DNA of 64,000 nucleotides from Vitreimonas sp. (GTDB lineage Bacteria; Patescibacteriota; Microgenomatia; UBA1400; PJMF01). Made by a program: the position numbers and the translations under genes. This document shows, piece after piece, positions 818-48,666 of the stretch. The stretch spans positions 1,344,517 through 1,408,516 of the forward strand of contig DASPLQ010000012.1 in NCBI GenBank assembly GCA_035627515.1, in the 5' to 3' direction. Every line of letters starts with the position of its first letter. Position 1 is the first letter of the stretch. The notes beneath the pieces were generated by a model. The model was not told the origin of the DNA. It was given only the letters and a program-made list of their open reading frames with translations, and did not search any database.

Positions 818-1255
818 TTAATCAATCACAAAATCTGCGCTTACATCTACTTTGCCACTTTCATTTATCATTAAGCGACAATACCAGGCTTCGGGAGCTC
901 CAGGATGTCGAGTAATAAGTAAACTTTTTCTTCGCAGTCCATCATCAATGTGTCGTTCTTCGCATTTCACAGCATGAACGCATGATGACCAATTTGTCGG
1001 TCTGGCCGGATTGCAGGATTCAAAGCAATAACCACGAATTTGTGACAAAATCATTTTAGAATAGTCCTGATCTTGGAGTGAGCGGCAACGCGTTACAAAT
1101 GCTTGCGAACCAGGGGAAAAGCGTTCAAAAATTCCAAAATAGAGAGCAGGAAATATAAAGAGCGCAAAGCCCACAAAACCAACCAAAAGATAGGTTAGAA
1201 AAGCCTGGTAAGTGAAGTAGATCTTAGATGAGTGTGACATCATAACTCCGGCCAT
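818..1255 (-). CDS. Hypothetical protein with N-terminal transmembrane anchor
   Basis: ORF with a hydrophobic N-terminal segment. No recognisable motif. Confidence 0.4.
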   Translation of the reverse strand: MAGVMMSHSSKIYFTYQAFLTYLLVGFVGFALFIFPALYFGIFERFSPGSQAFVTRCRSLQDQDYSKMILSQIRGYCFESCNPARPTNWSSCVHAVKCEERHIDDGLRRKSLLITRHPGAPEAWYCRLMINESGKVDVSADFVID

Positions 1256-1722
1256 TCTTCAGGATGCTCAAAAATAGGTGGTGTTTCTTTATAAACTGGA
1301 AAGATTTCCTTGGGCGTACTACCAGGAGGTAATGCCCAATTAGTATGCGTTGTATTTTTAGAGTAATCAGAGTGATAGTAAAAGATTGGCCAGCTTAAGG
1401 ATTGGGCTGCCATCCTAAAGCCTGAATTATCGGGTAATGGCCGGTAATGCATCTTTGTACAAAAATTTAGGTACTTTCTAGAGCAAATGATTTCATTACT
1501 GATGAGCGTTAAATCAGCCGGATACGTACCTTTTTCAGCCTTATATATCTCCACTTGTTCAGCAGCCTCTTTAAACTGTCTATATAAATCAAAGTCTCTT
1601 TGTTCAGTATCGAAAATAAAGAGGCGTAAAAAGACATTGAGGACCAAATAACCCAGTAATAATGCCAACAATAAGCCAAAAGCCATTAGAACGCGAAATA
1701 GAAGCTTTATTGGTTTTTTCAT
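1240..1722 (-). CDS. Hypothetical protein with N-terminal transmembrane anchor
   Basis: ORF with N-terminal TM helix MKKPIKLLFRVLMAFGLLLALLLGYLVL. AT-rich. Confidence 0.45.
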   Translation of the reverse strand: MKKPIKLLFRVLMAFGLLLALLLGYLVLNVFLRLFIFDTEQRDFDLYRQFKEAAEQVEIYKAEKGTYPADLTLISNEIICSRKYLNFCTKMHYRPLPDNSGFRMAAQSLSWPIFYYHSDYSKNTTHTNWALPPGSTPKEIFPVYKETPPIFEHPEEWPEL

Positions 1723-1731
1723 AATAAAACA

Positions 1732-2217
1732 CTAGTCAAAAAATTCATGAACAACTTTGGTATAGACTATCTCACCCTGAAAACAAACTAAGTACATATA
1801 ATAGGAAAAATCTCCATGTGGCCCTGCCTTCCCGTCGGCAGAGTATTTCCAACAATTTCGATCATTACCTACGCCTATACCATCTGCCAAAGGTTTGCCC
1901 AGCAAGTCTTCAACTTGGCCTTTAGTCATGTTCTTTTCAACCTTTTCAAAGTTAGTAACAGTGAAGCCAGGAGCAAAAATCGTGTCAATTTCTGGATATG
2001 GATAAAAATGTTGCTCTGAAAACAGAAAAACATGAATAATAAAAGGAGCCACGATGAAAATAATTGCTATTTGTAAAGCGATCACACCAGCAATGAGAGA
2101 TACCAACTTAGAAAAAAGTGTTTTATCTTTTCGGAAAAAAAGTCCTGCTGTTAAACTAATAGCGGCACATACTCCAAACAGTAAGAGAAAAAACCGAGTA
2201 ATTAAGAACCACGACAT
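1732..2217 (-). CDS. Hypothetical membrane protein, possibly with a BamE/SmpA-OmlA-like C-terminal domain
   Basis: Two N-terminal TM helices. MTKGQVEDLLGKPL resembles the SmpA/OmlA motif. Weak. Confidence 0.4.
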   Translation of the reverse strand: MSWFLITRFFLLLFGVCAAISLTAGLFFRKDKTLFSKLVSLIAGVIALQIAIIFIVAPFIIHVFLFSEQHFYPYPEIDTIFAPGFTVTNFEKVEKNMTKGQVEDLLGKPLADGIGVGNDRNCWKYSADGKAGPHGDFSYYMYLVCFQGEIVYTKVVHEFFD

Positions 2218-2315
2218 GAAAAATTATAGCATTTTCATCTTAGGGGAGTTAAAATCTCCTCGCACAAATCAAGATATTTTGGTTATAATAGTGATTCGTT
2301 ATTGCAAAATAACAT

Positions 2316-2391
2316 GCCAAGCTAGCCAAGTTGGTCACGGCGCATGTCTGAAAAACATGAAATTCAGGTTCGATTCCTGAGCTTGGCACCA
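2316..2391 (+). tRNA. tRNA-Phe(GAA)
   Basis: Acceptor gccaagc/gcttggc. Anticodon loop ctGAAaa. T-arm caggttcgattcctg. CCA present. Confidence 0.85.
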
Positions 2392-2449
2392 GACATTGAG
2401 AAAAATGAGATGAACGGGTACAATTGACACTTGTTCAATTAACAGAATG

Positions 2450-2522
2450 CGAGAATAGCTCAGTTGGCTAGAGCGTCTCCTTGCCAAGGAGAAGGTCGCG
2501 GGTTCGAGTCCCGTTTCTCGCT
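2450..2522 (+). tRNA. tRNA-Gly(GCC)
   Basis: Acceptor gcgagaa/ttctcgc. Anticodon loop ttGCCaa. T-arm gcgggttcgagtcccgt. Confidence 0.85.
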
Positions 2523-2526
2523 CACT

Positions 2527-2835
2527 TTAATCATCCCCATACCAGCAACCAGCTTTTTTAAGCATTTCCTTAAGCTCTAAATCAAATTTTTCTGATTCAG
2601 TTAAAACATTGGTTTTCTCTAGTGAAAAAAGATCGTAAACACTGGCATCAAGATAGTGAGCAATTTTTAAAGCCGTTAAGACTGAAGGAACCACTAAACC
2701 TTTCTCAATGTCGTAAACATTTTGCCTACTAATACCAATATGAAATGCCAAAGTTAACTGAGAGACGCCGATAGATTTGCGAAATTTGGCCACATTATTG
2801 TAAAGTTTGACAGGGTGCAGTGAGGGGTTCTTCAT
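2527..2835 (-). CDS. XRE-family helix-turn-helix transcriptional regulator
   Basis: HTH signature SQLTLAFHIGISRQNVYDIEKG. 102 aa. Confidence 0.7.
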   Translation of the reverse strand: MKNPSLHPVKLYNNVAKFRKSIGVSQLTLAFHIGISRQNVYDIEKGLVVPSVLTALKIAHYLDASVYDLFSLEKTNVLTESEKFDLELKEMLKKAGCWYGDD

Positions 2836-2844
2836 GAGAGAAAC

Positions 2845-2894
2845 GTCATTTAAAAGTTACACTTTTTATTCAAACTGTAAACTTTAGATGACAG
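2845..2894. promoter_or_regulatory. Palindromic intergenic element, copy 1 (arms TGTCATYTAAARGTTTACA, ~13-bp AT spacer), 10 bp upstream of the XRE regulator start
   Basis: GTCATTTAAAAGTTACAC...CTGTAAACTTTAGATGACAG. Same architecture at 8803-8853 and 38757-38805. Confidence 0.6.
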
Positions 2895-2924
2895 ATTCTT
2901 CCAAGGATATACCTCCAACCTTTA

Positions 2925-3578
2925 CTAAACCGTAGTACTAACCAAATCACTCATTTTAGCTGCGATAGCTTCTTCAGCAATTTCCTCAGGTTTTATTTTG
3001 CACACTTCAAAAATCTGCTTTTCAATTTGGTATAAGTATTGAGAATATTGCCGCCGCTTCATCACATCTTCTTCCAGAGAATATTTATCACCATATCGCT
3101 CCTCTAAGTCATCTAACCGTTCTTGCAAAAGCACCACTCCAGTTGGCGCCACCCGCATATCAGCATAGGCACAGATTTTTTGAGCTAAATCAGAGCTTAA
3201 AAAGTTTTCCTCAGCTTTCAAGAAACCCACTGCATCAATTAACTCATAAACTCGCAGCTCCACCCCAATCTCATCAATAATTTTCATCGTTGCATCATGA
3301 TCATTGTGACCATACTTTGCCACAAACTCTTTCTGGATTTCTTGCCAATATTCCAACTCACCAGCCGGCACAAACTCGGGAAACTTCAATAAATCAAACT
3401 TCACGATGTTACCCATGTCATGTAGTAAACAAGCTAAAATCACATGGCGGCGATCATTATCAGAAAGGGGAGTAGTTAAGGTATCTACAATCACGGCGGC
3501 CACACCTGCTACCCGTAGCTGGTGCTGCTGCAAATTAGGCATCAACCGATACTGTTGGTAAAGCTGCGCAATCGTCAT
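2925..3578 (-). CDS. HD-domain phosphohydrolase
   Basis: Conserved H...HD motif (LLHDMGN). Confidence 0.7.
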   Translation of the reverse strand: MTIAQLYQQYRLMPNLQQHQLRVAGVAAVIVDTLTTPLSDNDRRHVILACLLHDMGNIVKFDLLKFPEFVPAGELEYWQEIQKEFVAKYGHNDHDATMKIIDEIGVELRVYELIDAVGFLKAEENFLSSDLAQKICAYADMRVAPTGVVLLQERLDDLEERYGDKYSLEEDVMKRRQYSQYLYQIEKQIFEVCKIKPEEIAEEAIAAKMSDLVSTTV

Positions 3579-3598
3579 GGGGCAAGTATAACAAACTC

Positions 3599-4318
3599 TT
3601 ACTTAAAAAAGGCGCCATACCGGATAGAGCGCGAAAACTTCCGGTAAAAAGCCTCTAAAATCACGTCTCGGGCTTCATTAACTTGGAAGTACTGGGTATT
3701 TATCGTCAAGTCATATGAGTTACATTTATCAATATCCTTGCGCAAATACTGCTTCACAAAGGACCGCCGTTCTTTCTCCACTTTGGCGATCACTTCTTTA
3801 GCTTGAGCTTCATTCAATCCCTCAAAATCCATGGCCCGCTTCACTCGCCGATCGTATGGAGCTGTGATATTAATGTGCAACCCTTTAGCAAACGGACAAA
3901 TAAAGTTTGCACCTCTACCTAGAATAACTACATGTCCTTGCAAAGCGTATGCCAGCATCACCTTCACTAACTCCGTCACATACGTTAAGTCATCAATGTA
4001 CTCAGGATTAAGAATCGAGTGGACAATGTCATCAATTTTGCTGCGGCTCTTTTCATCGATAGCTTTAATGGCTGCTTTACGTTGTTTAGTCGAGTTCGCA
4101 ATTTCTTCAATCAGTTGGTCATCAACAAAAGTAAAACCTAACTTGTCTGCCACTGCTTTGGCAATGGGTGCCCCACCACTACCGGGCTCACGAGCAATGG
4201 TAATAAAGGGTCGGACAAATGAAGATTCAGCATCAGCACTATATTGATTAAAGATGCGATCTTTGATGTTGAGGGTATTAATGATTTTATTAACCAGCGG
4301 GTAATAATGTAGGGACAT
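3599..4318 (-). CDS. Cytidylate kinase-like family P-loop protein
   Basis: ITIAREPGSGGAPIAKAVADKLGF is a Walker-A-like loop typical of the cytidylate-kinase-like family. TATAAT sits 9 nt upstream of the ATG. Confidence 0.6.
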   Translation of the reverse strand: MSLHYYPLVNKIINTLNIKDRIFNQYSADAESSFVRPFITIAREPGSGGAPIAKAVADKLGFTFVDDQLIEEIANSTKQRKAAIKAIDEKSRSKIDDIVHSILNPEYIDDLTYVTELVKVMLAYALQGHVVILGRGANFICPFAKGLHINITAPYDRRVKRAMDFEGLNEAQAKEVIAKVEKERRSFVKQYLRKDIDKCNSYDLTINTQYFQVNEARDVILEAFYRKFSRSIRYGAFFK

Positions 4319-4410: not shown

Positions 4411-4484
4411 GCGTCAGTAGCTCAGTTGGATAGAGCATCTGTCTTCGGAACAGAGGGTCGGGGGTTCGAATCCCTCCTGGCGCA
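4411..4484 (+). tRNA. tRNA-Arg(TCG)
   Basis: Acceptor gcgtcag/ctggcgc. Anticodon loop ctTCGga. T-arm ggttcgaatcc. Followed by a T-run and the hairpin cttcgccttggcgaag. Confidence 0.8.
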
Positions 4485-4581: not shown

Positions 4582-5202
4582 ATGTACGCTGATACTGTCT
4601 ATTTATTTGGTGATCAATTTGCTCCGGCTGCCGGGATGTTGGGTTATAAAGAAACCTTGCCCAATGGCACAAAAGTTGATCAGAAGCGCTTAGCGGAACT
4701 GGTCGTCATAGCGGCTTTAGTCGAAATGAGTGAACAAGGTTACATCAAGACCTATGTAAAAGATGGGGAATTTTTGTTTTTTAAAACCCAAACTGCAGTC
4801 GTGAGCTTAGAAAAAAAACCTGCCAAGTCTTTAGGTGTATTCGAACATGCTTTACTTAGTGTATTGGATAGTGCCCAAAAAGAACTGTCTATTAACGATT
4901 TACTTCATTACCTTTTGCAACGGGACAGTTATAACCCCTGGGGTGAAGTGACTAGATTCATTAATGAAAATCTCATCAACCGAGGCATTCTAGAAAAGAC
5001 TAAAGATAAACAAATATTATTTATTAAAACCTACAAAAATGTACTGAAAGGGGAAATTCCCCAAGAAGAACAACAGCGGTTAGAAAAAGTCAAAACGGCT
5101 TTAGAACACTTTAAAAATAACGATCCTGTGCTTTATAAAAAAGTTCTTGATGGCGTCAATAATGGGATTAGCTCCCGGGTAGTGCAATCAGATAATGACT
5201 AA
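4582..5202 (+). CDS. Hypothetical protein
   Basis: 206-aa ORF. No confident family call. Confidence 0.45.
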   Translation: MYADTVYLFGDQFAPAAGMLGYKETLPNGTKVDQKRLAELVVIAALVEMSEQGYIKTYVKDGEFLFFKTQTAVVSLEKKPAKSLGVFEHALLSVLDSAQKELSINDLLHYLLQRDSYNPWGEVTRFINENLINRGILEKTKDKQILFIKTYKNVLKGEIPQEEQQRLEKVKTALEHFKNNDPVLYKKVLDGVNNGISSRVVQSDND

Positions 5203-5216
5203 GAGTATACTGAGGT

Positions 5217-5807
5217 ATGTCAACCTCTCCCTCTCAACCTACTCAACCACAATCACCACGACGCTTATTTCGCGCCCTCGAAGCTAAATCTTTGCGCTCA
5301 CGGACCGTACCGACCCAAATTGCTGATTATTTAACGAGCAAAAGTAGCACCCCTACTTTTTTGTTTTTGAACACGCTGTTATTTGCGTTTTGGATAATTT
5401 GGAACTCAGGCCTTATTCCTCAACTCAAACCCATCGATCCGTATCCCTTTGGCTTTTTGACGATGGTGGTCTCACTAGAAGCAATTGCGTTATCCATTTT
5501 TGTGTTAATTTCTCAAAATCGGGCGGCTCAAATTGCCACCTTGCGTGATGAGCTCAACTTACGCGTCAATCTGATTGCTGAACAAGAAGTGACTAAAAGT
5601 TTACAAATTTTAGCTGAGATGCGGACTAAAATGGGCATTAAAACTCCTGATCCTGAGCTTGAGGAAATGTTGCAAGATATTAATGCCTCTGACCTTGAGC
5701 ACTCGATCGCGGCTCAGTTAGTGAGAGCGGACCAAACGGTCATTACCAAACTGACCAAAAAAGACGTTCCTAACCTAATTAACTCGCTCCTGAATGTGCG
5801 GCGGTAA
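5217..5807 (+). CDS. Hypothetical membrane protein (two TM helices; possibly DUF1003-like)
   Basis: Two hydrophobic helices (FLFLNTLLFAFWIIW; LTMVVSLEAIALSIFVLI) followed by a coiled C-terminal region. Confidence 0.45.
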   Translation: MSTSPSQPTQPQSPRRLFRALEAKSLRSRTVPTQIADYLTSKSSTPTFLFLNTLLFAFWIIWNSGLIPQLKPIDPYPFGFLTMVVSLEAIALSIFVLISQNRAAQIATLRDELNLRVNLIAEQEVTKSLQILAEMRTKMGIKTPDPELEEMLQDINASDLEHSIAAQLVRADQTVITKLTKKDVPNLINSLLNVRR

Positions 5808-5816
5808 ACTCCTAGC

Positions 5817-5847
5817 TTGACTTTGCCCTTACTGGAATGTTTATAGT
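5817..5847 (+). promoter_or_regulatory. Sigma70-like promoter with a 19-bp spacer (TTGACT-N19-TATAGT), the hallmark of MerR-regulated promoters; dyad TAGTACaattcGTACTA overlaps the -10 box and transcription start
   Basis: TTGACT at 5817-5822, TATAGT at 5842-5847, ATG at 5860, giving a near-leaderless mRNA. Confidence 0.55.
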
Positions 5848-5859
5848 ACAATTCGTACT

Positions 5860-6282
5860 ATGAAACACTTAACTGTCAGCCAACTAGGAAAAGCTATTGG
5901 TGTCACACCCAAAACCATTCGCTTTTATGAATCTGAAGGCTTAATCACGCCTACAAAGCGGGCCGAGAATGGTTATCGTTTGTATGATGAATCGCTGGTT
6001 GAGGAACTTCAGTTAATTAAACAAGCTCGAGATTTAGGTTTGCCCCTCAAAGAAATTAAAACCTTACTAGCAGGTTGCCAAGGTGAAAGTTGCGATCACA
6101 CTAAAAAATATGTGCAGGGTGAAATTGATGACTACTTGGTCAAACTGAGCGCCAAAATTGACCAACTTCTTAATTTGCAGGCAAAATTACAACAACTCCG
6201 GACCCAGCTGGACAGCAATCCTCAATTTTGTGAGGGGGGAAAGTATTGTTGTAATATTTTGCATCAATTATCAAAAGTCTAG
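5860..6282 (+). CDS. MerR-family transcriptional regulator with Cys-rich C-terminus (probable metal sensor)
   Basis: N-terminal MerR HTH (LTVSQLGKAIGVTPKTIRFYESEGLITP...GYRLYDE). C-terminal Cys cluster (GCQGESCDH...KYCCN). Confidence 0.8.
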   Translation: MKHLTVSQLGKAIGVTPKTIRFYESEGLITPTKRAENGYRLYDESLVEELQLIKQARDLGLPLKEIKTLLAGCQGESCDHTKKYVQGEIDDYLVKLSAKIDQLLNLQAKLQQLRTQLDSNPQFCEGGKYCCNILHQLSKV

Positions 6283-6298
6283 AAAGGAGGTGAGAAAT

Positions 6299-6343
6299 AT
6301 GAATTCCAACGAAACGTGTTGCGGCGGCGGTTGCCAATGCTAA
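6299..6343 (+). CDS. 14-aa Cys-rich micro-protein MNSNETCCGGGCQC (putative metal-binding peptide)
   Basis: ATG at 6299 preceded by a strong SD (aaaggaggtga, 7-nt spacing). Five Cys in 14 residues. Followed by hairpin terminator ccatcatgtgcgcgccatgatgg at 6371-6393. Co-directional and contiguous with the merR-like gene. Confidence 0.55.
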   Translation: MNSNETCCGGGCQC

Positions 6344-6370
6344 GTATTAAACATTAATACACCAACACAA

Positions 6371-6400
6371 CCATCATGTGCGCGCCATGATGGTTTATCT
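6371..6400 (+). terminator. Putative intrinsic terminator after the merR/micro-ORF unit
   Basis: 8-bp perfect stem ccatcatg/catgatgg followed by tttatct. Confidence 0.45.
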
Positions 6401-6452
6401 CCCTCTACTTGATCGCATAAGTATCTGATATATAATTTAGTTATAGGATTAT

Positions 6453-7454
6453 ATGTCGGAAATTGTTCAAAAAGGTTTTTCACTAGCTCCAGGTGTGGAC
6501 ACACAAACTTTCCCTGTACGGGGACCTTTGGTTGAAATAACAGACCAAGGTTTCAAAGTTGTTCAAGGCCTGGGCAGCATACCTTTAGAAACGTTAGCAA
6601 AATACTACGATTTATATCACAATCGTCTTGACACACCCAGGGTAGAAATGTCAGTAGATGAAGAAGCACTCCAAAAATGGGTTGATCTTTTAATTGATGA
6701 CGCTTTTTCTGCAGTTGGTATAAATCTTGTTAGAAAGTTGGGATTATACCCTGATCCTAATGGTAAAAACATTTTAACTCCTTCAATTATTCTTACTCAC
6801 CTTACTAATCAACCAAATAGATATGTCCAGCTTAATGCTATTACTCCTGAAGGAAAAATCAGGATTAGAGCTATAAAAGTTGTTGATCTCTTTCAAGGAG
6901 ACTTTGCAGCTTGCCAATACACCATATTTACAGGTTTAAGAATGGCAGCGTGGGAAAAATTAACTGAAGAAGGCAATGATCCTCGATTTCAGGATTCTAT
7001 CTTTCAATCTTTGATGAGTAAGTCATTAAATACCGAAAGGATTCTCCAGCACGTTCATAACTCACCGCAACTTTTTGAGTGGGCATATCCAAATGACGGA
7101 CCTCAGAATTTAATCCAATCGGTGGAAGCATTGATTTACAACGCTGCAATTCGAGAGACATACTTGCCACTTATTCAAATCGCCAATAAAATGCTAACGA
7201 ACTTAATTTTATTTAACCACCTGGCAGATGAGAACCTCATCTTAGCCGGTAAGCCAACCTATAATGATGACGCAACTTATAATTTTAGTGATCATGAATT
7301 CCAATCAATAATTAACAGTCTCAAAAATAAAGCCCTCTTCCTACTTTACTTCAGAATGGACCTCATGGACCCTGCATCACATCGTTATTTAGTTGAGTAT
7401 CTTTATTATCGTTTTGGTGAAGAAGCCCCAGGAAAGAAATGGGAAACAAACTAA
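6453..7454 (+). CDS. Hypothetical protein (333 aa)
   Basis: Long ORF. No recognisable motif. Confidence 0.45.
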   Translation: MSEIVQKGFSLAPGVDTQTFPVRGPLVEITDQGFKVVQGLGSIPLETLAKYYDLYHNRLDTPRVEMSVDEEALQKWVDLLIDDAFSAVGINLVRKLGLYPDPNGKNILTPSIILTHLTNQPNRYVQLNAITPEGKIRIRAIKVVDLFQGDFAACQYTIFTGLRMAAWEKLTEEGNDPRFQDSIFQSLMSKSLNTERILQHVHNSPQLFEWAYPNDGPQNLIQSVEALIYNAAIRETYLPLIQIANKMLTNLILFNHLADENLILAGKPTYNDDATYNFSDHEFQSIINSLKNKALFLLYFRMDLMDPASHRYLVEYLYYRFGEEAPGKKWETN

Positions 7455-13707: not shown

Positions 13708-13781
13708 TGAGTCGGGTGGGACTCGAACCCACGACATTCTGCTTAAGAGGCAGACGCTCTAACCGACTGAGCTACCGACCC
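13708..13781 (-). tRNA. tRNA-Lys(CTT)
   Basis: Reverse-complement reads gggtcggtagctcagtcggttagagcgtctgcctCTTaagcagaatgtcgtgggttcgagtcccacccgactca. Acceptor gggtcgg/ccgactc (one GU). Confidence 0.85.
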
Positions 13782-17366: not shown

Positions 17367-17455
17367 TGGTGCCGAGAACAGGAATCGAACCTGCACGCCT
17401 TTTGAAGGGCACTGGATTCTAAGTCCAGCCTGTCTACCAATTTCAGCATCTCGGC
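17367..17455 (-). tRNA. tRNA-Leu(TAG), CCA encoded
   Basis: Reverse-complement reads gccgagatgctgaaattggtagacaggctggactTAGaatccag...ggttcgattcctgttctcggcacca. Long variable arm. Confidence 0.85.
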
Positions 17456-31793: not shown

Positions 31794-33071
31794 ATGGCAA
31801 GTATCCAAGGTTTATATGGCCGTGAAATTCTTGATTCCCGAGGTTTGCCCACGGTTGAGTGTACACTTTGGCTCGATACTGGCGCCGTCGTTGTCACCAG
31901 CGTACCCTCCGGAACTTCCAAAGGTAAAAATGAAGCTCTTGAATTACGGGATAATGACTCCAACTGGATGTGGGGCCATGGCGTCACTCAAGCTGTCAAT
32001 AATTTAAATACTGTCATTGCTCCTGCCTTGATCGGCAAAGATCCCACTCAACAAGAAGAAATTGATCAACTCTTAATCAGCTTGGATGGGACTCCCAACA
32101 AAAGCAAGCTCGGTGCCAACAGTTTATTAGCCGCTTCCCAAGCCGTACTCAAAGCTGCTGCGGCCAGCGTCAATCAACCGTTATATTACTATATTCAACA
32201 AAAGTATCAGTTAGCGGCTACCCTTGATATGCCGAGCTGTATTTACTGTTTAATTAATGGCGGTGAACACGGCGCTGACAACCTTGACATTCAAGAGTTC
32301 CACATCATTCCTGCTAGTCACACTGATTATCCTACGTCACTCAACATGGCGGTGTTGTTATTTCATAACTTAGAAGAGGTTTTGATCGCCAAAGGGGCCA
32401 TTCACTCAGTGGGTCTACAAGGCGGATTTGCCCCTAATTTATACAATAACACTGACGCTTTTGAAATTTTAATTGAAACCATCAAAACTTCTCCCTATAC
32501 CTTTGCCCAAGATTTATTTTTTGGCGTCGATATCGCCGCATCTGGATTGTTTCAAGCAGGAAAATACCACCTCAAAGACAAAACTCAAGCCTACAACACT
32601 CAAGAATTAATTGAGTACTACAAATCGATGCGCAATTTATATCGCGTGTTTTATATCGAGGATCCCTTTGAGGATAATGACGAAGCTGGGTGGGAAGCCT
32701 TGACTAGTGAAATGGGCGAAACCACTTTGATTGTTGGTGATGACTTACTCGTTACGAATAAGGCCAAAACCCAGCATGCAATCGATAAAAAGCTATGTAA
32801 TGCTATTTTAATCAAACCCAACCAGGTAGGAACGATCACCGAAACTATTGATGTCACCAAGCTCGCTCGTGAAGCTGGTTGGCAAATCGTGATCTCTCAC
32901 CGGAGTGGTGAGACAGGCGACGACTTCATTGCTGATTTTGCGGTGGGAGTGGGTGCGGAATACGTCAAGTTTGGTCCGGCTAATCGTGGTGAACGCGTAG
33001 CTAAGTACAATCGATTATTACAAATCAACGCTGAGCTCGCCCAAATGAACCAGCCATCTGCCAATGTCTGA
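31794..33071 (+). CDS. eno: Enolase
   Basis: N-terminus ILDSRG. SHRSGETED-like motif (SHRSGETGDDFIADFAV). Confidence 0.9.
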   Translation: MASIQGLYGREILDSRGLPTVECTLWLDTGAVVVTSVPSGTSKGKNEALELRDNDSNWMWGHGVTQAVNNLNTVIAPALIGKDPTQQEEIDQLLISLDGTPNKSKLGANSLLAASQAVLKAAAASVNQPLYYYIQQKYQLAATLDMPSCIYCLINGGEHGADNLDIQEFHIIPASHTDYPTSLNMAVLLFHNLEEVLIAKGAIHSVGLQGGFAPNLYNNTDAFEILIETIKTSPYTFAQDLFFGVDIAASGLFQAGKYHLKDKTQAYNTQELIEYYKSMRNLYRVFYIEDPFEDNDEAGWEALTSEMGETTLIVGDDLLVTNKAKTQHAIDKKLCNAILIKPNQVGTITETIDVTKLAREAGWQIVISHRSGETGDDFIADFAVGVGAEYVKFGPANRGERVAKYNRLLQINAELAQMNQPSANV

Positions 33072-41830: not shown

Positions 41831-42607
41831 TTACTTTGAACCACCCCGTTGCCACTTCACACCTTCCAAGAGGGGGGCATAGGCGTCATCTTCCAGCTCA
41901 ATTTTTAATGCGGCTAATTCTTCTGCTGTTGGCACATGATCCTGAAACTCAATCTCTTTAATGTCTTCTACTACTGCTAGGGGGGTAGATTCGTTGCCTT
42001 CGCCCATTTCTAAAACTGCAGCTGTAGTGACGCTTTGCATGACATTCACTTGTTCCATTTTCATTAACCGGCCAAATAAATCTGGCTTGTCAATGTAACT
42101 TCGCAAGGGATTAAAACCACAATGTGCAATGGCATGACCTACTACACCCCAGTTGAGAGGAATACTACTGCTATCCGACATTGTGACGCCTACCTCTTTG
42201 AGACCATAGTGCGAGCGTAAAAACGCCCAGACATTATTGACTGACTTTTGTAAATCTGCTGGCCATAAAATATATTGATTATCAGCATTTGATTCATCGA
42301 TACCAGCTGACATGAACATCCAGTTGCCTTTGATTGTCAACATCAAGCCATACTTAGATGAGTGGGGATCGGTATATAACTCGGCTTCTTTTTTGACTAA
42401 CTCGAATTTTTCTTTACGTTCACCAGTCACTTTTGGCACAAAGCGGCCTTCACAAGTGCTGACGATTTTCGAGGCAATCACCACCACACTTCGCTCAGGG
42501 AGAGAGGGTATAGCATCAGCAATAACTTTAAAGAGATCGTCATTTTTTTTGACTAGGGGAGTTTTGTAGGCAGTGACCTTCATAGGCTTATTGTACAATA
42601 GAGGCAT
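41831..42607 (-). CDS. CofE-like (F420-0:gamma-glutamyl ligase family) amide ligase
   Basis: VVVIASKIVSTCEGRFV matches the CofE N-terminal signature. ~250-aa size fits. Confidence 0.55.
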   Translation of the reverse strand: MPLLYNKPMKVTAYKTPLVKKNDDLFKVIADAIPSLPERSVVVIASKIVSTCEGRFVPKVTGERKEKFELVKKEAELYTDPHSSKYGLMLTIKGNWMFMSAGIDESNADNQYILWPADLQKSVNNVWAFLRSHYGLKEVGVTMSDSSSIPLNWGVVGHAIAHCGFNPLRSYIDKPDLFGRLMKMEQVNVMQSVTTAAVLEMGEGNESTPLAVVEDIKEIEFQDHVPTAEELAALKIELEDDAYAPLLEGVKWQRGGSK

Positions 42608-42611
42608 CTTT

Positions 42612-44897
42612 ATGGCATTTGAACTCGCCTCCCAATTTCAACCCACCGGTGACCAACCTCTAGCAATTGAGCAGCTAAGTGGAGGGATTGCAGGTGGCCA
42701 AAAACACCAAACATTGTTGGGTGTGACTGGCTCAGGTAAAACCTTTACTATGGCCAATGTCATCCAACAAACACAATTACCTACCTTAATCATTGCTCAC
42801 AACAAGACCTTAGCCGCTCAACTCTATCAGGAATTTCGCGATTTTTTCCCTCATAATGCCGTCAGCTACTTTGTATCTTATTACGACTACTACCAACCTG
42901 AAGCTTATATCGCTTCGACTGATACCTACATTGAAAAAGAAGCCACTATTAATGACGAAATTGACCGTTTGCGCTTAGCAACTACGACTAATTTATTGAC
43001 TCGCCCTGATGTAATTGTTGTTGCCTCGGTGTCGTGTATTTATAACTTAGGTTCCCCGGTTGAGTATGGACGGTATCTTTTAGAAATTGTCGAGGGCGAA
43101 GTTATATCTCGCCAAACTTTGTTATTACAGTTAGCTAATTTACAGTATGACCGCTCAGATGCTGAGCTGCGTCGCGGCACCTTCCGAATGAGAGGCGATA
43201 GTATTCAACTCTGGCCTGCGTATGAAGATACCGCTCTACGGATCGACACATTGGAAAACCGCATTACTTCAATTGATAGAATCGATCCAGTAACGGGCTC
43301 GGTAATTGAGGAACCCAAAACTAAAGCTCCTATTTTCAGCGATCAACCTAGTTTAAAACGTTATGTGATTTACCCGGCTAAGCACTACGTCGTTAACCCT
43401 AAAACTCAGGAACAAGCCCTGGCGGATATCAAGCGTGACTTAGATGCACAGTTAGCTGAGTTTAAAGCTCATGGCAAAACTATTGAAGCGTATCGTTTGG
43501 AACAAAAAGTTACCTATGATATGGAGATGATTAAAGAGTTTGGTTTCGTAAATGGCATCGAAAACTACTCTCGCTATTTCGATGGTCGTAAACCTGGAGA
43601 TGCTCCCTTCACACTCCTTGATTATTTCTTAGAAAATGCCCGGCTTTTTAATCAAGGACGGTACTTAACATTCATCGACGAAAGTCACATCAGTGTGCCG
43701 CAAATCCGCGGCATGCACCACGGAGATCGCTCGCGTAAAGAAACCTTAATTCAGTATGGCTTTCGGCTCCCCAGTGCTCTTGATAACCGGCCACTGCAAT
43801 TTCATGAGTTTCAACTGCGCACACCACAAACTATTTATGTTTCGGCCACGCCCAATGAGTGGGAAATCTCTCAATCGAATGGACAAGTCACTGAACAATT
43901 GATTCGCCCCACTGGCTTAATTGACCCTGAGATTGAACTCCGCCGGAGCGAAGGCCAAATTGAAGATCTAATTATTGAAATTATCACCCGCAAAGCTATT
44001 GGTCAAAGAACCTTGGTCACTACCCTGACCAAACGTATGGCAGAAGCTCTAACAGAATACTTGAATGATGAAGGTAAAGTCCGCAAATTGGTCCGCAACT
44101 TCCGTGACCGAAAAGAGCAGCAACAAAATCAAGTGAATCCTGAAGCCGTCATTTCTCACCACGATGAACTGCCGATCGACAACATGGAGATTGGCAAAAT
44201 TCCTGACCAGTACCTTAGTCAAGCTAAACTACCTGAAGCATCTAAACTCACGGCTGATGCTTTATTACTTCCCAAAGTTGCCTACTTGCATTCAGACATT
44301 GAAACACTAGAACGCTCAGACATTTTAGATGATTTACGTCGTGGCGTTTATGACGTGGTGGTAGGAATTAACTTACTGCGGGAAGGCTTGGACCTCCCAG
44401 AAGTAACGTTGGTGGCGATTTTAGATGCCGATAAAGAAGGTTTCTTGCGTTCTCGCACGTCCTTAATCCAGACTCTCGGTAGGGCCGCGCGTCATTCTGA
44501 GGGTAGAGCGATTCTGTATGCCGATAAATTGACGCTGTCCATGAAGGCAGCCATACAGGAAACCTTACGCCGACGTCATATTCAAATCAAGTTTAACGAG
44601 CAGCACGGCATTACTCCCCAAACAATTGTTAAACCCATTCGCGATCGAATGATTGAGAAAAAAGAAGAGGAAGACGAATCTGATTCTAAAAACACTGCTA
44701 AGAAAAAAGCCGGTGTGATTGTTCATCTTAGCAAAAAAGAAAGTGTGAATCTGAGTGAACTGGAGCCAGACAACTTAACACCTGGTGAAAAGAAACGCAT
44801 GGCAGACAAACTTCGTCGTCGCATGAAACAAGCTGCCAATGATATGGATTTTGAGTTAGCGGCGATGATTCGCGATGTAGTCAATAGTTTTGAATAA
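42612..44897 (+). CDS. uvrB: Excinuclease ABC subunit B
   Basis: Helicase motifs (GVTGSGKT; DESH). Beta-hairpin. C-terminal UVR domain (DFELAAMIRD). Confidence 0.9.
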   Translation: MAFELASQFQPTGDQPLAIEQLSGGIAGGQKHQTLLGVTGSGKTFTMANVIQQTQLPTLIIAHNKTLAAQLYQEFRDFFPHNAVSYFVSYYDYYQPEAYIASTDTYIEKEATINDEIDRLRLATTTNLLTRPDVIVVASVSCIYNLGSPVEYGRYLLEIVEGEVISRQTLLLQLANLQYDRSDAELRRGTFRMRGDSIQLWPAYEDTALRIDTLENRITSIDRIDPVTGSVIEEPKTKAPIFSDQPSLKRYVIYPAKHYVVNPKTQEQALADIKRDLDAQLAEFKAHGKTIEAYRLEQKVTYDMEMIKEFGFVNGIENYSRYFDGRKPGDAPFTLLDYFLENARLFNQGRYLTFIDESHISVPQIRGMHHGDRSRKETLIQYGFRLPSALDNRPLQFHEFQLRTPQTIYVSATPNEWEISQSNGQVTEQLIRPTGLIDPEIELRRSEGQIEDLIIEIITRKAIGQRTLVTTLTKRMAEALTEYLNDEGKVRKLVRNFRDRKEQQQNQVNPEAVISHHDELPIDNMEIGKIPDQYLSQAKLPEASKLTADALLLPKVAYLHSDIETLERSDILDDLRRGVYDVVVGINLLREGLDLPEVTLVAILDADKEGFLRSRTSLIQTLGRAARHSEGRAILYADKLTLSMKAAIQETLRRRHIQIKFNEQHGITPQTIVKPIRDRMIEKKEEEDESDSKNTAKKKAGVIVHLSKKESVNLSELEPDNLTPGEKKRMADKLRRRMKQAANDMDFELAAMIRDVVNSFE

Positions 44898-44902
44898 GCT
44901 GT

Positions 44903-45538
44903 TTAAGTACTTGATGCTAAAAGAAATTTTTTAGTCAGTTTTAATCTCACCTCTCTCAATCTTCTCAGGCGATTCCTTAACTTTTTTAAACGTTCGAAAG
45001 CATCGTGATCAACAACTTGTTGAAAAACTTCTGCATCCATATCATATCCCGCACTATCTTCTAATTCTTCTACAATCAGGTCTATTTTTCCTATTTCTGT
45101 TAAAATTAAGGCGTCAACTTCTTCAACAGGGGTAAGCATTTTTTTTATCTCACCCTTTTTAATAAGTTCATTTATTTTATTGGCGCTTAACCAATACTCC
45201 AAAATTTTAATTCGCGTGATATAACTTAGGGTTTTTTCACGATTATTAAGATGTGAAACAATTTGGAGTGTATTCCAATTTTCTTTTAAAAGAGTAATGA
45301 GTTGAGATGTATTACATTCATTATCTTGCTTCATATCACAATCATCCATTAGCTGCTTCAACTCTTCCTGATAGTTATCAGCGTTGTGAATCCTACTAAA
45401 TAGCTCCCCAAGTTCTTCATCAATACATGAATAAGAATATAAAAAATTTTCATAGGAGAGTTTTGCAATCCGTGTTTTTTGTTCAGCTTTAAAAGCACTC
45501 CCATAGTCTATTTCATTCATCATAATTAAGAGCATCAT
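44903..45538 (-). CDS. Hypothetical acidic protein, AT-rich, antisense between uvrB and uvrA
   Basis: 211-aa ORF, visibly AT-richer than the flanking uvr genes. No motif. Confidence 0.45.
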   Translation of the reverse strand: MMLLIMMNEIDYGSAFKAEQKTRIAKLSYENFLYSYSCIDEELGELFSRIHNADNYQEELKQLMDDCDMKQDNECNTSQLITLLKENWNTLQIVSHLNNREKTLSYITRIKILEYWLSANKINELIKKGEIKKMLTPVEEVDALILTEIGKIDLIVEELEDSAGYDMDAEVFQQVVDHDAFERLKKLRNRLRRLREVRLKLTKKFLLASST

Positions 45539-45622
45539 ACACTACCCCATACTCGACATAAAGTCTCTTTCCTGCTACACTGATAATTCGCATTTTATTG
45601 GTGCTTTTCATGGTTTTAACTT

Positions 45623-48600
45623 ATGGCAACAAAAAAATCAGACAATAATAATCAAAATATTCAAAACTACATCACCGTCACCGGTGCTCGTGAGCACAAT
45701 CTCAAAAATGTGACGTTGAACATTCCCAAAAACCAGTTAGTAGTCTTTACTGGTTTATCGGGAAGTGGCAAAAGTTCATTGGCCTTTGATACTTTGTATG
45801 CTGAGGGGCAACGACGATATGTGGAAAGCTTGAGCTCGTACGCTCGTCAATTTTTGGGCGTGATGAGCAAGCCAGAAGTTGATCAAATTGATGGCTTATC
45901 TCCGGCTATTTCGATTGATCAAAAAACTACTTCTCATAATCCACGGTCGACAGTGGGAACAATTACGGAAATTTACGATTACCTGCGACTGTTATTTGCA
46001 CGGGTCGGCCATCCGCATTGTCCTAATTGTGGCCGGGAAATTGCCACACAAAGTATCGATCAAATCGTGGGCCACATCATGACCCAAACAGACCAAAGCC
46101 TGGACCAAATTGTACGGATCATGATTTTGTCGCCAGTGGTGCGGGATCGTAAGGGTGAGTTTAGTGCCCTGTTTACCAGTTTGCAGAAACAAGGTTATTC
46201 ACGCGTCCGCATCGATGGCAGTCACTACAATTTAGCTGATGATTTAACGTTGATTAAAACCAACCGTCACACTATTGAAGTGGTTTTAGATCGGTTAAGT
46301 ATTTCTCAGAAACAACTCAAAGACGAGAGCGAGCGTAAAGCTTTCCGGACCAGAATTTCGCAATCAATCGAACAAGCTCTCAAACTCTCAGATGGTTTTG
46401 CGGTGGCATCATTTATTCATGATCAAAGTTTCGAGTTTCCCAATGACCCGCAGGATGTTGATGACCGGTTATTTAGTGAAAAATTAGCTTGTAGTGTCTG
46501 CGGTATCTCAATTTCTGAACTTGAACCTCGCTTGTTTTCTTTTAACTCACCCCAAGGAGCTTGCCCTACATGTAATGGTTTGGGCTCCTTACTCAAAATT
46601 TCAGTGGATAAAATTTTGGCCCCCAGTTTGACTTTGAGTGAAGGAGCAATTATTCCCTTTGCTAAAAACTTGAGCTCTGACACTTGGTGGTCGCGCTTAG
46701 TAGAAACCGTGGTAGAAAAAGCTGGTTATGATTTCCGCCGCACACCATTTCAAGATTTTGACGAAGAAACACAACATACTTTGCTCAACGGTTCGCCAAA
46801 AGTATATCGGGTCAGCGGTGAAAACCGTTTTGGTCGCTCTACTGCGATTGAAGAAAAATTTGAGGGTTTTATTCCGTCGCTGGAACGCAAATATAATGAA
46901 ACCGAATCGGAATATATTCGCAAAGACATCGAACAATACATGCAGCGCCAAGTCTGTCCCACTTGTGATGGCGCACGTTTGAAAGAAGAAGCGCTATCAG
47001 TCACGATTGAAGGTAAGAATATTTCGCAAATTACTAGCCTCGCTATTAATCGTGCCTTGGAATGGGCTCGAACCTTGAAGAATGGTCAAATTCTGTCAGT
47101 GAAAGAACGAGCAATTGGCGATTCTATTTTGAAGGAAATTGTAGCTCGCTTAGAGTTTTTAAGTTCAGTTGGTTTAAATTACTTAAGTCTGCATCGTGAA
47201 GCCTCAACGCTAGCAGGTGGTGAAGCACAACGTATCCGATTAGCCTCGCAAATAGGCACCGGTTTAACGGGGGTGCTGTATATTTTGGATGAACCAACAA
47301 TTGGCTTGCATCAGCGTGATAACCATCAGCTTATCCAAACACTCAAAAATTTGCGTGACAAAGGCAATAGTGTGGTGGTAGTAGAGCACGATCGAGACGT
47401 GATGTTGGCTTCAGATTATATATTTGATTTTGGACCAAAGGCCGGACAGGGTGGAGGACAAGTGGTGGCAGAAGGCGAGCCAACAGCCATCATGAAAAAC
47501 TCAGCTTCTTTGACTGGTAAATATCTTGGTCGCAAAAAAGACGTCCACCGGGACCGCACACAAGCTATTAATGGTGTGGGCTCTGAGCGCAGTGTGATTG
47601 ATCCTGACTCCGAAGCTCAAGCGATCTCAACTGCTCAAGCATTACGGATTAGCGGCGCTACCCATCATAATCTCAAAGGTATTGAAGTAGATTTTCCACT
47701 TAATACTTTGACCTGTATCACTGGTATTTCAGGATCCGGAAAATCTACCTTACTTCATGATACTCTCTATGCCAATTTAGCTGAGAAACTTGGTAAAAAA
47801 AGTGAGATCATGCCGGGACATGTGGATCGCATTAGTATTCCTGACATTGTTCGTCGCGTCACTTTAATTGATCAAAGTCCAATTGGAAAAACTCCTCGCT
47901 CTAACCCCGCCACTTACACCAAAATTTTTGACTACATTCGTAATTTATTTACCAATACCCAAGAGGCCCGCATGCGTGGTTTCAATGTTGGCCGGTTTAG
48001 TTTCAACGTTAAAGGCGGCCGGTGTGAAGCTTGTGAAGGAGAAGGTCAAATCAAAATCGAGATGCAGTTCCTTCCTGATGTGTACGTGGATTGTGACGTC
48101 TGTTTAGGAAAACGTTACAATGAAGAAACTTTACAAGTCACGTACAAAGATAAAAATATTGCTGATGTCCTGAAATTAAGCGTTGATGAAGCATATGAAT
48201 TTTTCAACACTAACTCTACCCTGCGACAGAAATTAAAAACCTTACAAGATGTTGGCTTGGGCTATATTGAGCTAGGTCAACCCGCTCCCACGCTCAGTGG
48301 CGGTGAAGCCCAACGCGTCAAACTGGCTAAAGAACTCTCAGGTAGAACCAGCGAACACGTCGTGTATCTTTTAGACGAACCGACCACAGGTTTACACTTT
48401 GCTGATGTCCAGAACCTGCTAAATGTCCTTCATCAGCTGGTGGGCCAAAACAATACCGTGATTGTGATTGAACATAATTTAGACGTCATCAAAAATGCCG
48501 ACTGGATTATCGATTTGGGACCTGAGGGTGGTGAACAAGGTGGTGAGATCGTGGCCGTAGGACCGCCCGAAGTAGTAGCCACCACTCCGCAATCGTTTAC

Positions 48601-48646
48601 GGGTAAGTATTTGCAAGAAGAATTGGCCGTATTTAAACGCTCCTAG
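45623..48646 (+). CDS. uvrA: Excinuclease ABC subunit A
   Basis: Two ABC modules (GLSGSGKSS; GISGSGKST). Zinc fingers (CPNCG; CPTCDG; CEACEGEG). 1007 aa. Confidence 0.9.
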   Translation: MATKKSDNNNQNIQNYITVTGAREHNLKNVTLNIPKNQLVVFTGLSGSGKSSLAFDTLYAEGQRRYVESLSSYARQFLGVMSKPEVDQIDGLSPAISIDQKTTSHNPRSTVGTITEIYDYLRLLFARVGHPHCPNCGREIATQSIDQIVGHIMTQTDQSLDQIVRIMILSPVVRDRKGEFSALFTSLQKQGYSRVRIDGSHYNLADDLTLIKTNRHTIEVVLDRLSISQKQLKDESERKAFRTRISQSIEQALKLSDGFAVASFIHDQSFEFPNDPQDVDDRLFSEKLACSVCGISISELEPRLFSFNSPQGACPTCNGLGSLLKISVDKILAPSLTLSEGAIIPFAKNLSSDTWWSRLVETVVEKAGYDFRRTPFQDFDEETQHTLLNGSPKVYRVSGENRFGRSTAIEEKFEGFIPSLERKYNETESEYIRKDIEQYMQRQVCPTCDGARLKEEALSVTIEGKNISQITSLAINRALEWARTLKNGQILSVKERAIGDSILKEIVARLEFLSSVGLNYLSLHREASTLAGGEAQRIRLASQIGTGLTGVLYILDEPTIGLHQRDNHQLIQTLKNLRDKGNSVVVVEHDRDVMLASDYIFDFGPKAGQGGGQVVAEGEPTAIMKNSASLTGKYLGRKKDVHRDRTQAINGVGSERSVIDPDSEAQAISTAQALRISGATHHNLKGIEVDFPLNTLTCITGISGSGKSTLLHDTLYANLAEKLGKKSEIMPGHVDRISIPDIVRRVTLIDQSPIGKTPRSNPATYTKIFDYIRNLFTNTQEARMRGFNVGRFSFNVKGGRCEACEGEGQIKIEMQFLPDVYVDCDVCLGKRYNEETLQVTYKDKNIADVLKLSVDEAYEFFNTNSTLRQKLKTLQDVGLGYIELGQPAPTLSGGEAQRVKLAKELSGRTSEHVVYLLDEPTTGLHFADVQNLLNVLHQLVGQNNTVIVIEHNLDVIKNADWIIDLGPEGGEQGGEIVAVGPPEVVATTPQSFTGKYLQEELAVFKRS

Positions 48647-48666
48647 CTTAGTTTACAATCAAAGTA

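Follow-up and report, generated by a model that had tools for sequence, protein, structure and literature searches.

In Streptomyces the MerR-family gene for TipAL is autoregulated, and the same mRNA gives a short, abundant product, TipAS, that sequesters the ligand. The known bacterial metallothioneins are controlled by ArsR/SmtB- or CsoR-type repressors and not by a MerR-type activator. For the metal-sensing MerR proteins themselves the published signals are an operator of the HmrR/CueR class, ACCTTCC(C/AG)-N-(T/C)GGAAGGT, in a spacer of 19 base pairs (bp), a length that both the HmrR and the CueR signals require; a MerR signal, TCCGTAC-N4-GTACGGA; and a ZntR signal that is a 22-bp palindrome, ACTCTGGAGTCGACTCCAGAGT, in a 20-bp spacer (PMC1526738). 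The locus described here lies in a 64,000-nucleotide stretch of DNA (referred to below as the window; contig DASPLQ010000012.1, assembly GCA_035627515.1, forward strand, positions 1,344,517 to 1,408,516) and consists of a merR-family gene, a Shine-Dalgarno (SD) sequence, a 14-codon open reading frame (ORF) for a Cys-rich peptide, termed the micro-ORF, and a hairpin. On balance it probably represents a self-contained, autoregulated metal-stress unit in which a sensor and a miniature metallothionein-like buffer peptide are produced together under negative feedback. Documented here are how the unit is laid out and conserved, the coding status of its micro-ORF, its operator class and its RNA structure; the features, read directly from window sequence 5500-6800, are as follows.

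5817-5822, + strand: -35 hexamer TTGACT; TTGAC(A/C) is kept there in 20/20 homologous promoters
5823-5841, + strand: 19-nucleotide spacer that separates the -35 box from the -10 box
5822-5841, + strand: operator of CueR/HmrR type inside the 19-bp spacer, assigned by comparison with the family consensus
5842-5847, + strand: -10 hexamer TATAGT, 12 nucleotides upstream of the merR ATG
5860-6282, + strand: merR-family metal-sensor gene, 140 residues (Pfam MerR_1, MerR and MerR-DNA-bind), with stop codon TAG at 6280-6282
6283-6293, + strand: Shine-Dalgarno sequence AAAGGAGGTGA, directly past the merR stop
6299-6343, + strand: micro-ORF of 14 codons plus stop, peptide MNSNETCCGGGCQC, with its ATG at 6299, 16 nucleotides past the merR stop
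6369-6395, + strand: hairpin AACCATCATG-TGCGCGC-CATGATGGTT with a 10-bp stem and a 7-nucleotide loop (6379-6385), folding energy -15.7 kcal/mol, z-score -3.8

Promoter, operator and regulator

Twenty-two homologous loci were fetched which, with the window, make 23 loci and 18 distinct sequences (17 of them homologous), all of them Patescibacteria-like and metagenomic. The promoter TTGACT-N19-TATAGT has the over-long 19-bp spacer of the MerR-type activated class (criterion of PMC1526738), as an earlier sequence-only reading of this DNA had proposed, and the spacing is preserved in all 20 of the homologous loci for which upstream sequence is available, whose promoters read TTGAC(A/C)-N19-TA(T/C/G)A(G/C/T)T and yield the promoter/operator consensus TTGACATTCCAGTAACTGGAAGGTATATAGT. 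Centred in the 19-bp spacer of the homologous loci is the dyad of a copper-type CueR/HmrR box, ACCTTCCAG-N3-CTGGAAGG. The family dyad CCTTCCAG-N3-CTGGAAGG coincides with the published HmrR signal and closely resembles that of CueR (PMC1526738); the operator consensus CCTTCCAGTAACTGGAAGG likewise matches the HmrR signal, and the dyad differs from both the MerR and the ZntR signals. The E. coli PcopA promoter, read directly as TTGACCTTCCCCTTGCTGGAAGGTTTAACCT, has the same register as the family operator, and one homologous promoter (locus L097) is identical to it at 24 of 31 positions, again in the same register. A genome-contig scan with a helix-turn-helix pattern gave 80 generic CueR-like loci (31-42% identity), which served as controls; in many of these the same box also adjoins the cueR-like gene. 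On the family matrix the window promoter/operator scores 34.2 bits, and the runner-up site in the 64-kb window 8.6 bits.

The copy in the window departs from its relatives in detail. Its right operator half-site, ACTGGAATG, is intact (5831-5839) and its left half is degenerate, TTTGCCCT as against ATTCCAGT/ATTACAGT in the family. Moreover, it carries a 6-nucleotide insertion between the -10 box and the ATG relative to the homologues. In most homologues the ATG sits 6 nucleotides past the -10 box and the mRNA is therefore leaderless; in the window the distance is 12 nucleotides compared with about 6, and the merR transcript is predicted to be near-leaderless, in keeping with the initial description of the gene. 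A second dyad, TAGTAC-N5-GTACTA (5844-5860), had been noticed over the -10 box; it is present, as a product of the 6-nucleotide insertion, but it was rejected as a regulatory element, being absent from every homologous promoter, and the operator dyad lies instead inside the spacer. Autoregulation and co-transcription of the two cistrons, also proposed at the outset, fit an anatomy in which a single promoter precedes both, no promoter-like gap parts them and a hairpin lies at the 3' end.

The regulator matches Pfam MerR_1 at 5.4e-21 and also matches MerR and MerR-DNA-bind. A word-indexed search returned 28 relatives at 45-57% identity, all metagenomic, and an exhaustive search of 1.84 billion cluster representatives with a profile hidden Markov model (HMM) returned just 23 at E<=1e-30, past which the matches grade into a continuum of generic metal-sensing MerR proteins. 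In the AlphaFold2 (AF2) model (predicted local distance difference test, pLDDT, 86.7; helices at residues 6-13, 17-25 and 82-119) the five Cys residues of the window regulator fall in two places: C73 and C78, together with H80, in the loop preceding the long dimerisation helix 82-119, and C124, C130 and C131 in loop 120-132 past that helix, with a short helix next. C73, C78, H80, C130 and C131 are invariant in the family alignment, which usually has one more Cys 6-10 residues ahead of the CC pair; the first loop Cys (C124 position) is found in most, not all, family members.

Several comparisons place this protein among the metal sensors. When E. coli CueR, as translated from NC_000913.3, is aligned to the regulator with MAFFT, the CueR Cu(I) ligands C112/C120 pair with C124/C131 of the regulator, and the CueR helix PIIENLS with NILHQLS; a phmmer search of PDB sequences gives CueR as best match; and Foldseek, run with the AF2 model, puts CadR and CueR at the top, with matches also to NmlR and BmrR. 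The NCBIfam models for ZntR, CadR, CueR and MerR give 75-84 bits on the regulator, below their cut-offs of 143-168 (for the CueR equivalog TIGR02044, 80.6 bits against 147.4), so that no metal is decided by them.

A regulator with five or six conserved Cys/His residues might instead be a sensor of oxidative, electrophile or thiol stress like NmlR or SoxR, the peptide then being a sacrificial, redox-buffering thiol in organisms that have no glutathione. This would accord with the weak matches to the NmlR and SoxR models and with stress genes found near the unit (dnaJ, HSP70 and HIT, and in locus L085 msrA immediately upstream). We nevertheless regard it as improbable, since the operator is of the copper CueR/HmrR class, the Cys residues stand at the metal-loop positions of metal-sensing MerR proteins, the NmlR and SoxR models reach 39-46 bits, half the score of the metal-sensor models (~80), and in locus L082 the unit adjoins copper genes.

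The micro-ORF and its conservation

The peptide MNSNETCCGGGCQC contains four Cys residues rather than the five first counted, at positions 7, 8, 12 and 14, giving the core CC-x3-C-x-C. The strong SD past the merR stop and the ATG 16 nucleotides from that stop are as originally described, and the observation that such a signal is rare here also holds: a strong SD lies near any candidate start in just 4 of the 65 long ORFs of the window, and AAGGAGGTGA is found once in 64 kb. The genome seems to use mostly SD-independent or leaderless initiation. Small ORFs with at least four Cys number one in the window and 1.5 on average in shuffled windows; because shuffled sequence gives as many, the micro-ORF alone is not significant, and the case for it rests on comparative data.

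Loss of the micro-ORF by frameshifts or stops in orthologous loci had been named in advance as the outcome that would refute it. It is instead kept in all 23 loci (18 distinct) despite frame changes, overlaps and fusions, and with an excess of synonymous change. It is led by an SD in 18/18 distinct family sequences, in nearly all loci of the form AAGG[A/G]GGTGA, followed by 5-10 nucleotides and a start codon that is ATG, with one GTG. The family micro-ORFs have 10-22 codons and 4-7 Cys (examples are MTDGTCCGGTCSC, MDGSCCGGSCSC, MRQHNTYEGGCCGGGSCC, MIKQNTGCGCGTCDCGGSCSC, MKEKCTCCGPKCKCKECQC and MKPCCPKGCC); the peptides are 18-40% Cys, arranged in CC and CxC motifs, and aromatic residues occur in 2 of the 18. 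Among pairwise alignable micro-ORFs the pooled proportions of synonymous and non-synonymous differences are 0.63 and 0.24 (ratio 0.39), the codons TGT and TGC swap freely, and an amino-acid pattern is kept beyond the Cys residues, namely the GG of CCGG and the terminal C-x-C.

The position of the micro-ORF relative to merR is variable, and the SD is kept all the same. The frame is +2 with an ATGA overlap in 10 distinct loci, +1 in 5 and 0 in 3, the last being in-frame fusions to the regulator (proteins P0003, P0008 and P0029); two more fused proteins, P0156 and P0168, came from the exhaustive HMM search. As nucleotides the SD persists in three settings: inside merR as K-G-G-E codons, spanning the merR stop (locus L100), and past the stop (the window). 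In most homologues it sits in the last merR codons and is translated K-G-G-E, so that the odd KGGE terminus of these regulators is explained by conservation of the SD nucleotides there. Among the 80 control loci an SD-led, Cys-rich ORF at the regulator stop was found in one, L080, itself a member of the clade from the phylum Chloroflexota that is described below; one further match starts with GTG, lacks an SD and seems to be a chance one. On these sequence comparisons the micro-ORF is very probably a real coding gene.

The fusions bear on what the peptide does. At least five independent lineages, those of the five fused proteins, join it to the regulator C-terminus; the tail of E. coli CueR, GCCHHRAG, aligns exactly at KGGE plus the fused peptide, past the helix that follows the metal loop; and the cistrons are tightly coupled, with ATGA overlap in many loci. 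The peptide might therefore assist the sensor and not buffer metal in bulk: as a C-terminal tail that can detach, it would deliver metal to the very tight site of the regulator, or strip it from there, and so set sensitivity or reset the switch. Yet an SD and an ATG remain inside the fused genes (KGGExxM), from which free peptide could still be made; a fusion needs merely an indel of 1-2 nucleotides where the cistrons are so close; and a strong SD in an SD-poor genome suggests an excess of peptide and not one copy per sensor. An accessory role, though a close rival, seems unlikely on this evidence, is compatible with buffering and does not exclude it, and the repeated fusions do favour some physical link of peptide and sensor.

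A second clade, in the Chloroflexota, consists of L080 (from a metagenome-assembled genome of Dehalococcoidia) together with L104 and L105/L106, which are of high GC and have the regulators P0196 and P0182. This clade keeps the same operator, the leaderless start and the SD in the last regulator codons, so that the layout predates the Patescibacteria family and reaches beyond it. The peptides of this clade have 33-36 residues with a Cys-rich C-terminus (MPELDADDVLPVIDADAAACCDCDCEPCPPDCC, MKSAKKAWVIIPLRPVTKQACDCDCDCIPPCPPDCC) and an N-terminal part of 19-22 residues. That N-terminal part could serve as a leader, and the Cys-rich C-terminal core recalls the precursors of chalkophores (methanobactin MbnA), as if the micro-ORF encoded the precursor of a modified metallophore or other ribosomally synthesized and post-translationally modified peptide whose enzymes are encoded elsewhere in the genome. 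The sequence-only reading had offered a metallophore precursor as one option; it is now very improbable, given that no modifying enzyme, protease or exporter is linked to the unit in ~20 loci, that the peptides of Patescibacteria are nearly leaderless, some having 10-13 residues in total, and that several peptides are fused to a cytoplasmic DNA-binding protein.

The 3' hairpin and the genomic setting

A hairpin lies 4-25 nucleotides past the micro-ORF in 15 of the 18 distinct loci. Its stem varies in sequence, and its 7-nucleotide loop, which a G-C pair closes, has the form N-GC(TA/GC)GC. The window and each family locus have a single copy of the motif, in every case in sense orientation and directly past the micro-ORF. 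In the alignment of the 15 sequences 92.6% of cells are paired, with compensatory changes in 9 of the 10 pairs, and the covariation score of 0.95 compares with 0.32 in shuffles, none of 500 of which reached it, and with no more than 0.20 when partners were slid. G·U pairs occupy eleven cells, on the sense strand only; because these cells would be A·C mismatches on the other strand, the hairpin is read as RNA. A covariance model gives the window site 35 bits on the + strand as against 17 bits on the opposite one, a match that is expected as the site is in the training set, and the runner-up site in the window 15.8 bits; the hairpin of L086, held out of the model, was matched at an E-value of 0.0017. 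Rfam, searched at gathering and at permissive thresholds, returned only tRNAs and noise, with no family for the hairpin.

The structure had been called a hairpin terminator. A stable hairpin it is, but its reading as an intrinsic terminator finds no support: the U tract of such a terminator is absent (1-7 T in the next 10 nucleotides across loci, in no consistent run), and a terminator scan of the window made no call. A short Cys-rich ORF followed by a hairpin, with the next gene of the window (6453-7454) on the same strand, could also suggest an attenuator, in which a functionless leader peptide senses Cys-tRNA and controls read-through of the hairpin. This we hold to be extremely improbable: in most loci the next gene is convergent, and in the window it has its own promoter-like site (TTGATC-16-TATAAT, 6409-6436) and is not conserved beside the unit; the hairpin lies 4-25 nucleotides past the stop, and no alternative anti-terminator pairing of it was found; in-frame fusion to a regulator would make no sense for a leader peptide; and an amino-acid pattern is kept beyond Cys.

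A hexamer complementary to itself is present in every loop: GCGCGC or GCUAGC in Patescibacteria, and UGGCCA in the Dehalococcoidia hairpin (L080, 4551-4596). The hexamer is off-centre and therefore does not pair within its own hairpin. It could serve kissing (loop-loop) dimerisation of the mRNA or be a recognition site for a protein; the variants are few, and this is a lead only.

The unit is mostly bounded by a convergent gene, its neighbours vary among loci, and because the downstream gene is usually convergent the unit stands alone. Neighbours in several loci are dnaJ and genes for uracil phosphoribosyltransferase (UPRTase), HIT and acetyltransferase proteins, and in L095 a two-component system. 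In L082 (GCA_964497535.1) the unit diverges from a cluster of copper genes (860-3760, - strand) that comprises csoR and genes for an HXXEE protein, a P-type ATPase of HMA type and a DsbD/cupredoxin fusion. A CsoR-type repressor and the MerR protein of the unit, different regulators but both of copper type, would thus stand back to back there. In one subgroup of Patescibacteria the unit lies, on the opposite strand, between dnaJ (often with the UPRTase gene) on one side and, on the other, a HIT/acetyltransferase block near which dnaK is found. This recurrent position may be plain synteny or a link to proteotoxic stress. HspR, considered on account of the dnaJ/dnaK neighbours, was rejected as the identity of the regulator: HspR models reach 39 bits against ~80 for the metal sensors, the operator box is that of CueR/HmrR, and the unit is on the strand opposite dnaJ. 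The loci of the subgroup and the surroundings of the unit in the window are as follows.

Subgroup arrangement on the upstream side: loci L083, L087, L091, L098 and L101
Subgroup arrangement on the downstream side: loci L083, L090, L093 and L098
5217-5807, + strand: upstream neighbour, DUF1003 membrane protein
4582-5202, + strand: upstream neighbour, 206-residue protein without family match
6453-7454, + strand: downstream ORF of 333 residues, without Pfam or NCBIfam match and not beside the unit in other loci
423-738, 2316-2522, 4411-4484, 13708-13781 and 17370-17455: tRNA regions

The DUF1003 and 206-residue genes are likewise not conserved beside the unit elsewhere. The tRNA regions contain eight tRNA genes, of which five form two tight clusters close to the window start. 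The window has a GC content of 43% and includes the housekeeping genes uvrA, uvrB, uvrC, enolase and iPGM; uvrB, uvrA and uvrC are grouped at 42573-51871, with a gene for a 618-residue transglutaminase-like protein between uvrA and uvrC, the end of which is overlapped by the uvrC ORF. The nearest named relatives of the enolase (31794-33071) have 67-71% identity and are mostly from Patescibacteria (Woesebacteria, Pacebacteria, Microgenomates). The name attached to the source of the window at NCBI, Vitreimonas sp. (an alphaproteobacterium), looks wrong, and the organism is treated here as a member of Patescibacteria, also known as the candidate phyla radiation (CPR).

Proposed function and relation to known systems

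From the features described above we infer metal induction, the identity of the metal, metal binding by the peptide and feedback. In the proposed mechanism a CueR/HmrR-like MerR dimer would occupy the dyad in the over-long 19-bp spacer of its own promoter; binding of a soft metal would realign the -35 and -10 boxes and switch on a (near-)leaderless bicistronic mRNA. The first cistron would yield more sensor, and the second, served by its SD, a four-Cys thiolate peptide that would sequester or buffer the inducing metal. As free metal drops the sensor would return to its repressing form and so close a negative feedback loop, and the conserved hairpin would end or stabilise the transcript. The inducers are most likely Cu(I)/Ag(I)-type ions: Cu(I)-type metals are favoured because of the operator class, the alignment with the CueR ligands and the setting of the unit in L082. 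A thiophilic divalent ion is the alternative, and it keeps its place because of the extra C73, C78 and H80, the CC pair and the similarities to CadR and ZntR. The peptides for their part fit an operational definition of metallothionein composition: small size, Cys above about 15% in CxC, CC or CxxC motifs, and few or no aromatic residues.

A number of observations weigh against a copper-responsive buffering unit, some against the metal and some against the circuit. The NCBIfam scores are equal for ZntR, CadR, CueR and MerR and all are far under the cut-offs, and Foldseek puts CadR first. The residue at the start of the dimerisation helix (S77 in E. coli CueR), Ser or Cys, marks selectivity for +1 or +2 ions, respectively, and a Cys at or beside the CueR Ser77 position is the mark of the divalent-metal sensors ZntR, MerR and CadR; HMMER pairs S77-A78 of CueR with S77-C78 of the window regulator, and MAFFT places that segment differently. 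The invariant extra ligands C73, C78 and H80 of the family are not in CueR. A four-Cys peptide of 14 residues may need oligomerisation to hold metal tightly. Its likeness to metallothioneins is one of composition only: no homology to metallothioneins is detectable, and neither the peptides nor the fused tails have a Pfam or NCBIfam match at E<=10; a PDB sequence search with the peptides returned only a cyclotide at an E-value of 2.9 and no metallothionein, which is a weak test with peptides so short and so biased in composition. Copper genes adjoin the unit in one locus of ~18, the others lying near dnaJ, UPRTase, HIT or msrA genes; no metal transporter is visible in the 64-kb window, and the operator-matrix search of the same 64 kb gave no second site. 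Finally, with its degenerate left half-site and its 6-nucleotide insertion, the window copy itself may be poorly regulated or altered, to judge by its promoter.

The unit is of interest on several counts. Standard gene callers miss genes as short as 10-22 codons, and only the 33-residue Chloroflexota form and the fused forms were called; here such a gene is the sole apparent output of a conserved metal-type regulator, in tiny-genome organisms of poorly understood physiology. If it binds metal, the peptide would be, to our knowledge, the smallest ribosomally encoded metallothionein-like molecule and the first under MerR-type activation. A sensor and a buffer on one leaderless transcript would make a very small feedback circuit, reusable in biosensors; the repeated fusing and splitting offers a natural series for the role of Cys/His-rich CueR-like tails; and the covarying 3' hairpin with its conserved palindromic loop is a candidate RNA motif outside Rfam.

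Comparison with known systems shows both what the unit shares with each and where it differs. With CueR/HmrR it shares the fold, the 19-bp spacer, the operator class and PcopA register, the aligned Cu(I)-ligand Cys residues and a similar short helix. However, the regulator scores ~81 bits against an equivalog cut-off of 147 and has the extra invariant C73, C78 and H80 and the CC pair; it lies inside the operon that it would activate and is not separately transcribed, on an mRNA that appears to be leaderless; and its target is the micro-ORF and not an efflux ATPase or an oxidase. ZntR, CadR, PbrR and MerR likewise have a Cys near the start of the dimerisation helix and a CC pair in the metal loop (C114-C115 in ZntR), CadR is the top structural match, and the NCBIfam scores equal that of CueR. 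Here the differences are that ZntR has a 20-bp spacer and a 22-bp palindrome as opposed to 19 bp and another dyad in this family, that the MerR signal differs too, and that the scores fall below the equivalog cut-offs of ZntR, CadR and MerR alike.

The circuit itself may be likened to TipAL/TipAS in that a self-activated promoter would give, from the same transcript, a shorter product that soaks up the inducer, and the internal start of TipAS is paralleled by the internal SD and ATG of the fused variants. TipAS, however, is the 144-residue domain by which the same protein binds its ligands, thiopeptide antibiotics; the second product in this family is a separate, Cys-rich peptide of 10-36 residues, and the presumed ligand is a metal. 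The metallothioneins (the fungal Cu-metallothioneins of ~25 residues from Neurospora and Agaricus; SmtA/BmtA, MymT) resemble the predicted peptides in being small, Cys-rich, with CxC and CC motifs, nearly without aromatic residues and under metal-sensor control. They differ from them in that no homology is detectable and in that the family peptides, at 10-22 residues with 4-7 Cys, are shorter than any gene-encoded metallothionein known to us. The CCHH tail of E. coli CueR is a disordered, Cys/His-rich tail at the position taken by the fused peptide in the five fused proteins, but in this family the Cys-rich segment is mostly a separate cistron with its own SD and start.

No description of the peptide, the hairpin or their pairing was found in Pfam, NCBIfam, Rfam or the literature searched. 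Tentatively, then, and short of an even chance in our estimate, the whole may be proposed as an undescribed minimal autonomous metal-homeostasis module common to Patescibacteria (CPR) and Chloroflexota, with a copper-type MerR sensor, a leaderless mRNA, the shortest known gene-encoded metallothionein-like peptides (10-36 residues), a ribosome-binding site embedded in KGGE codons, repeated fusion and splitting, and a new structured RNA with a self-complementary loop hexamer. The ingredients, a MerR/CueR-type switch and Cys-rich metal-binding peptides, are known, and their combination is new: peptides of 10-36 residues as the only target of a regulator whose own codons contain the SD, a sensor and a peptide that are repeatedly joined and separated, a leaderless operon under autoregulation, a dedicated RNA element at the 3' end, and a spread over both CPR and Chloroflexota.

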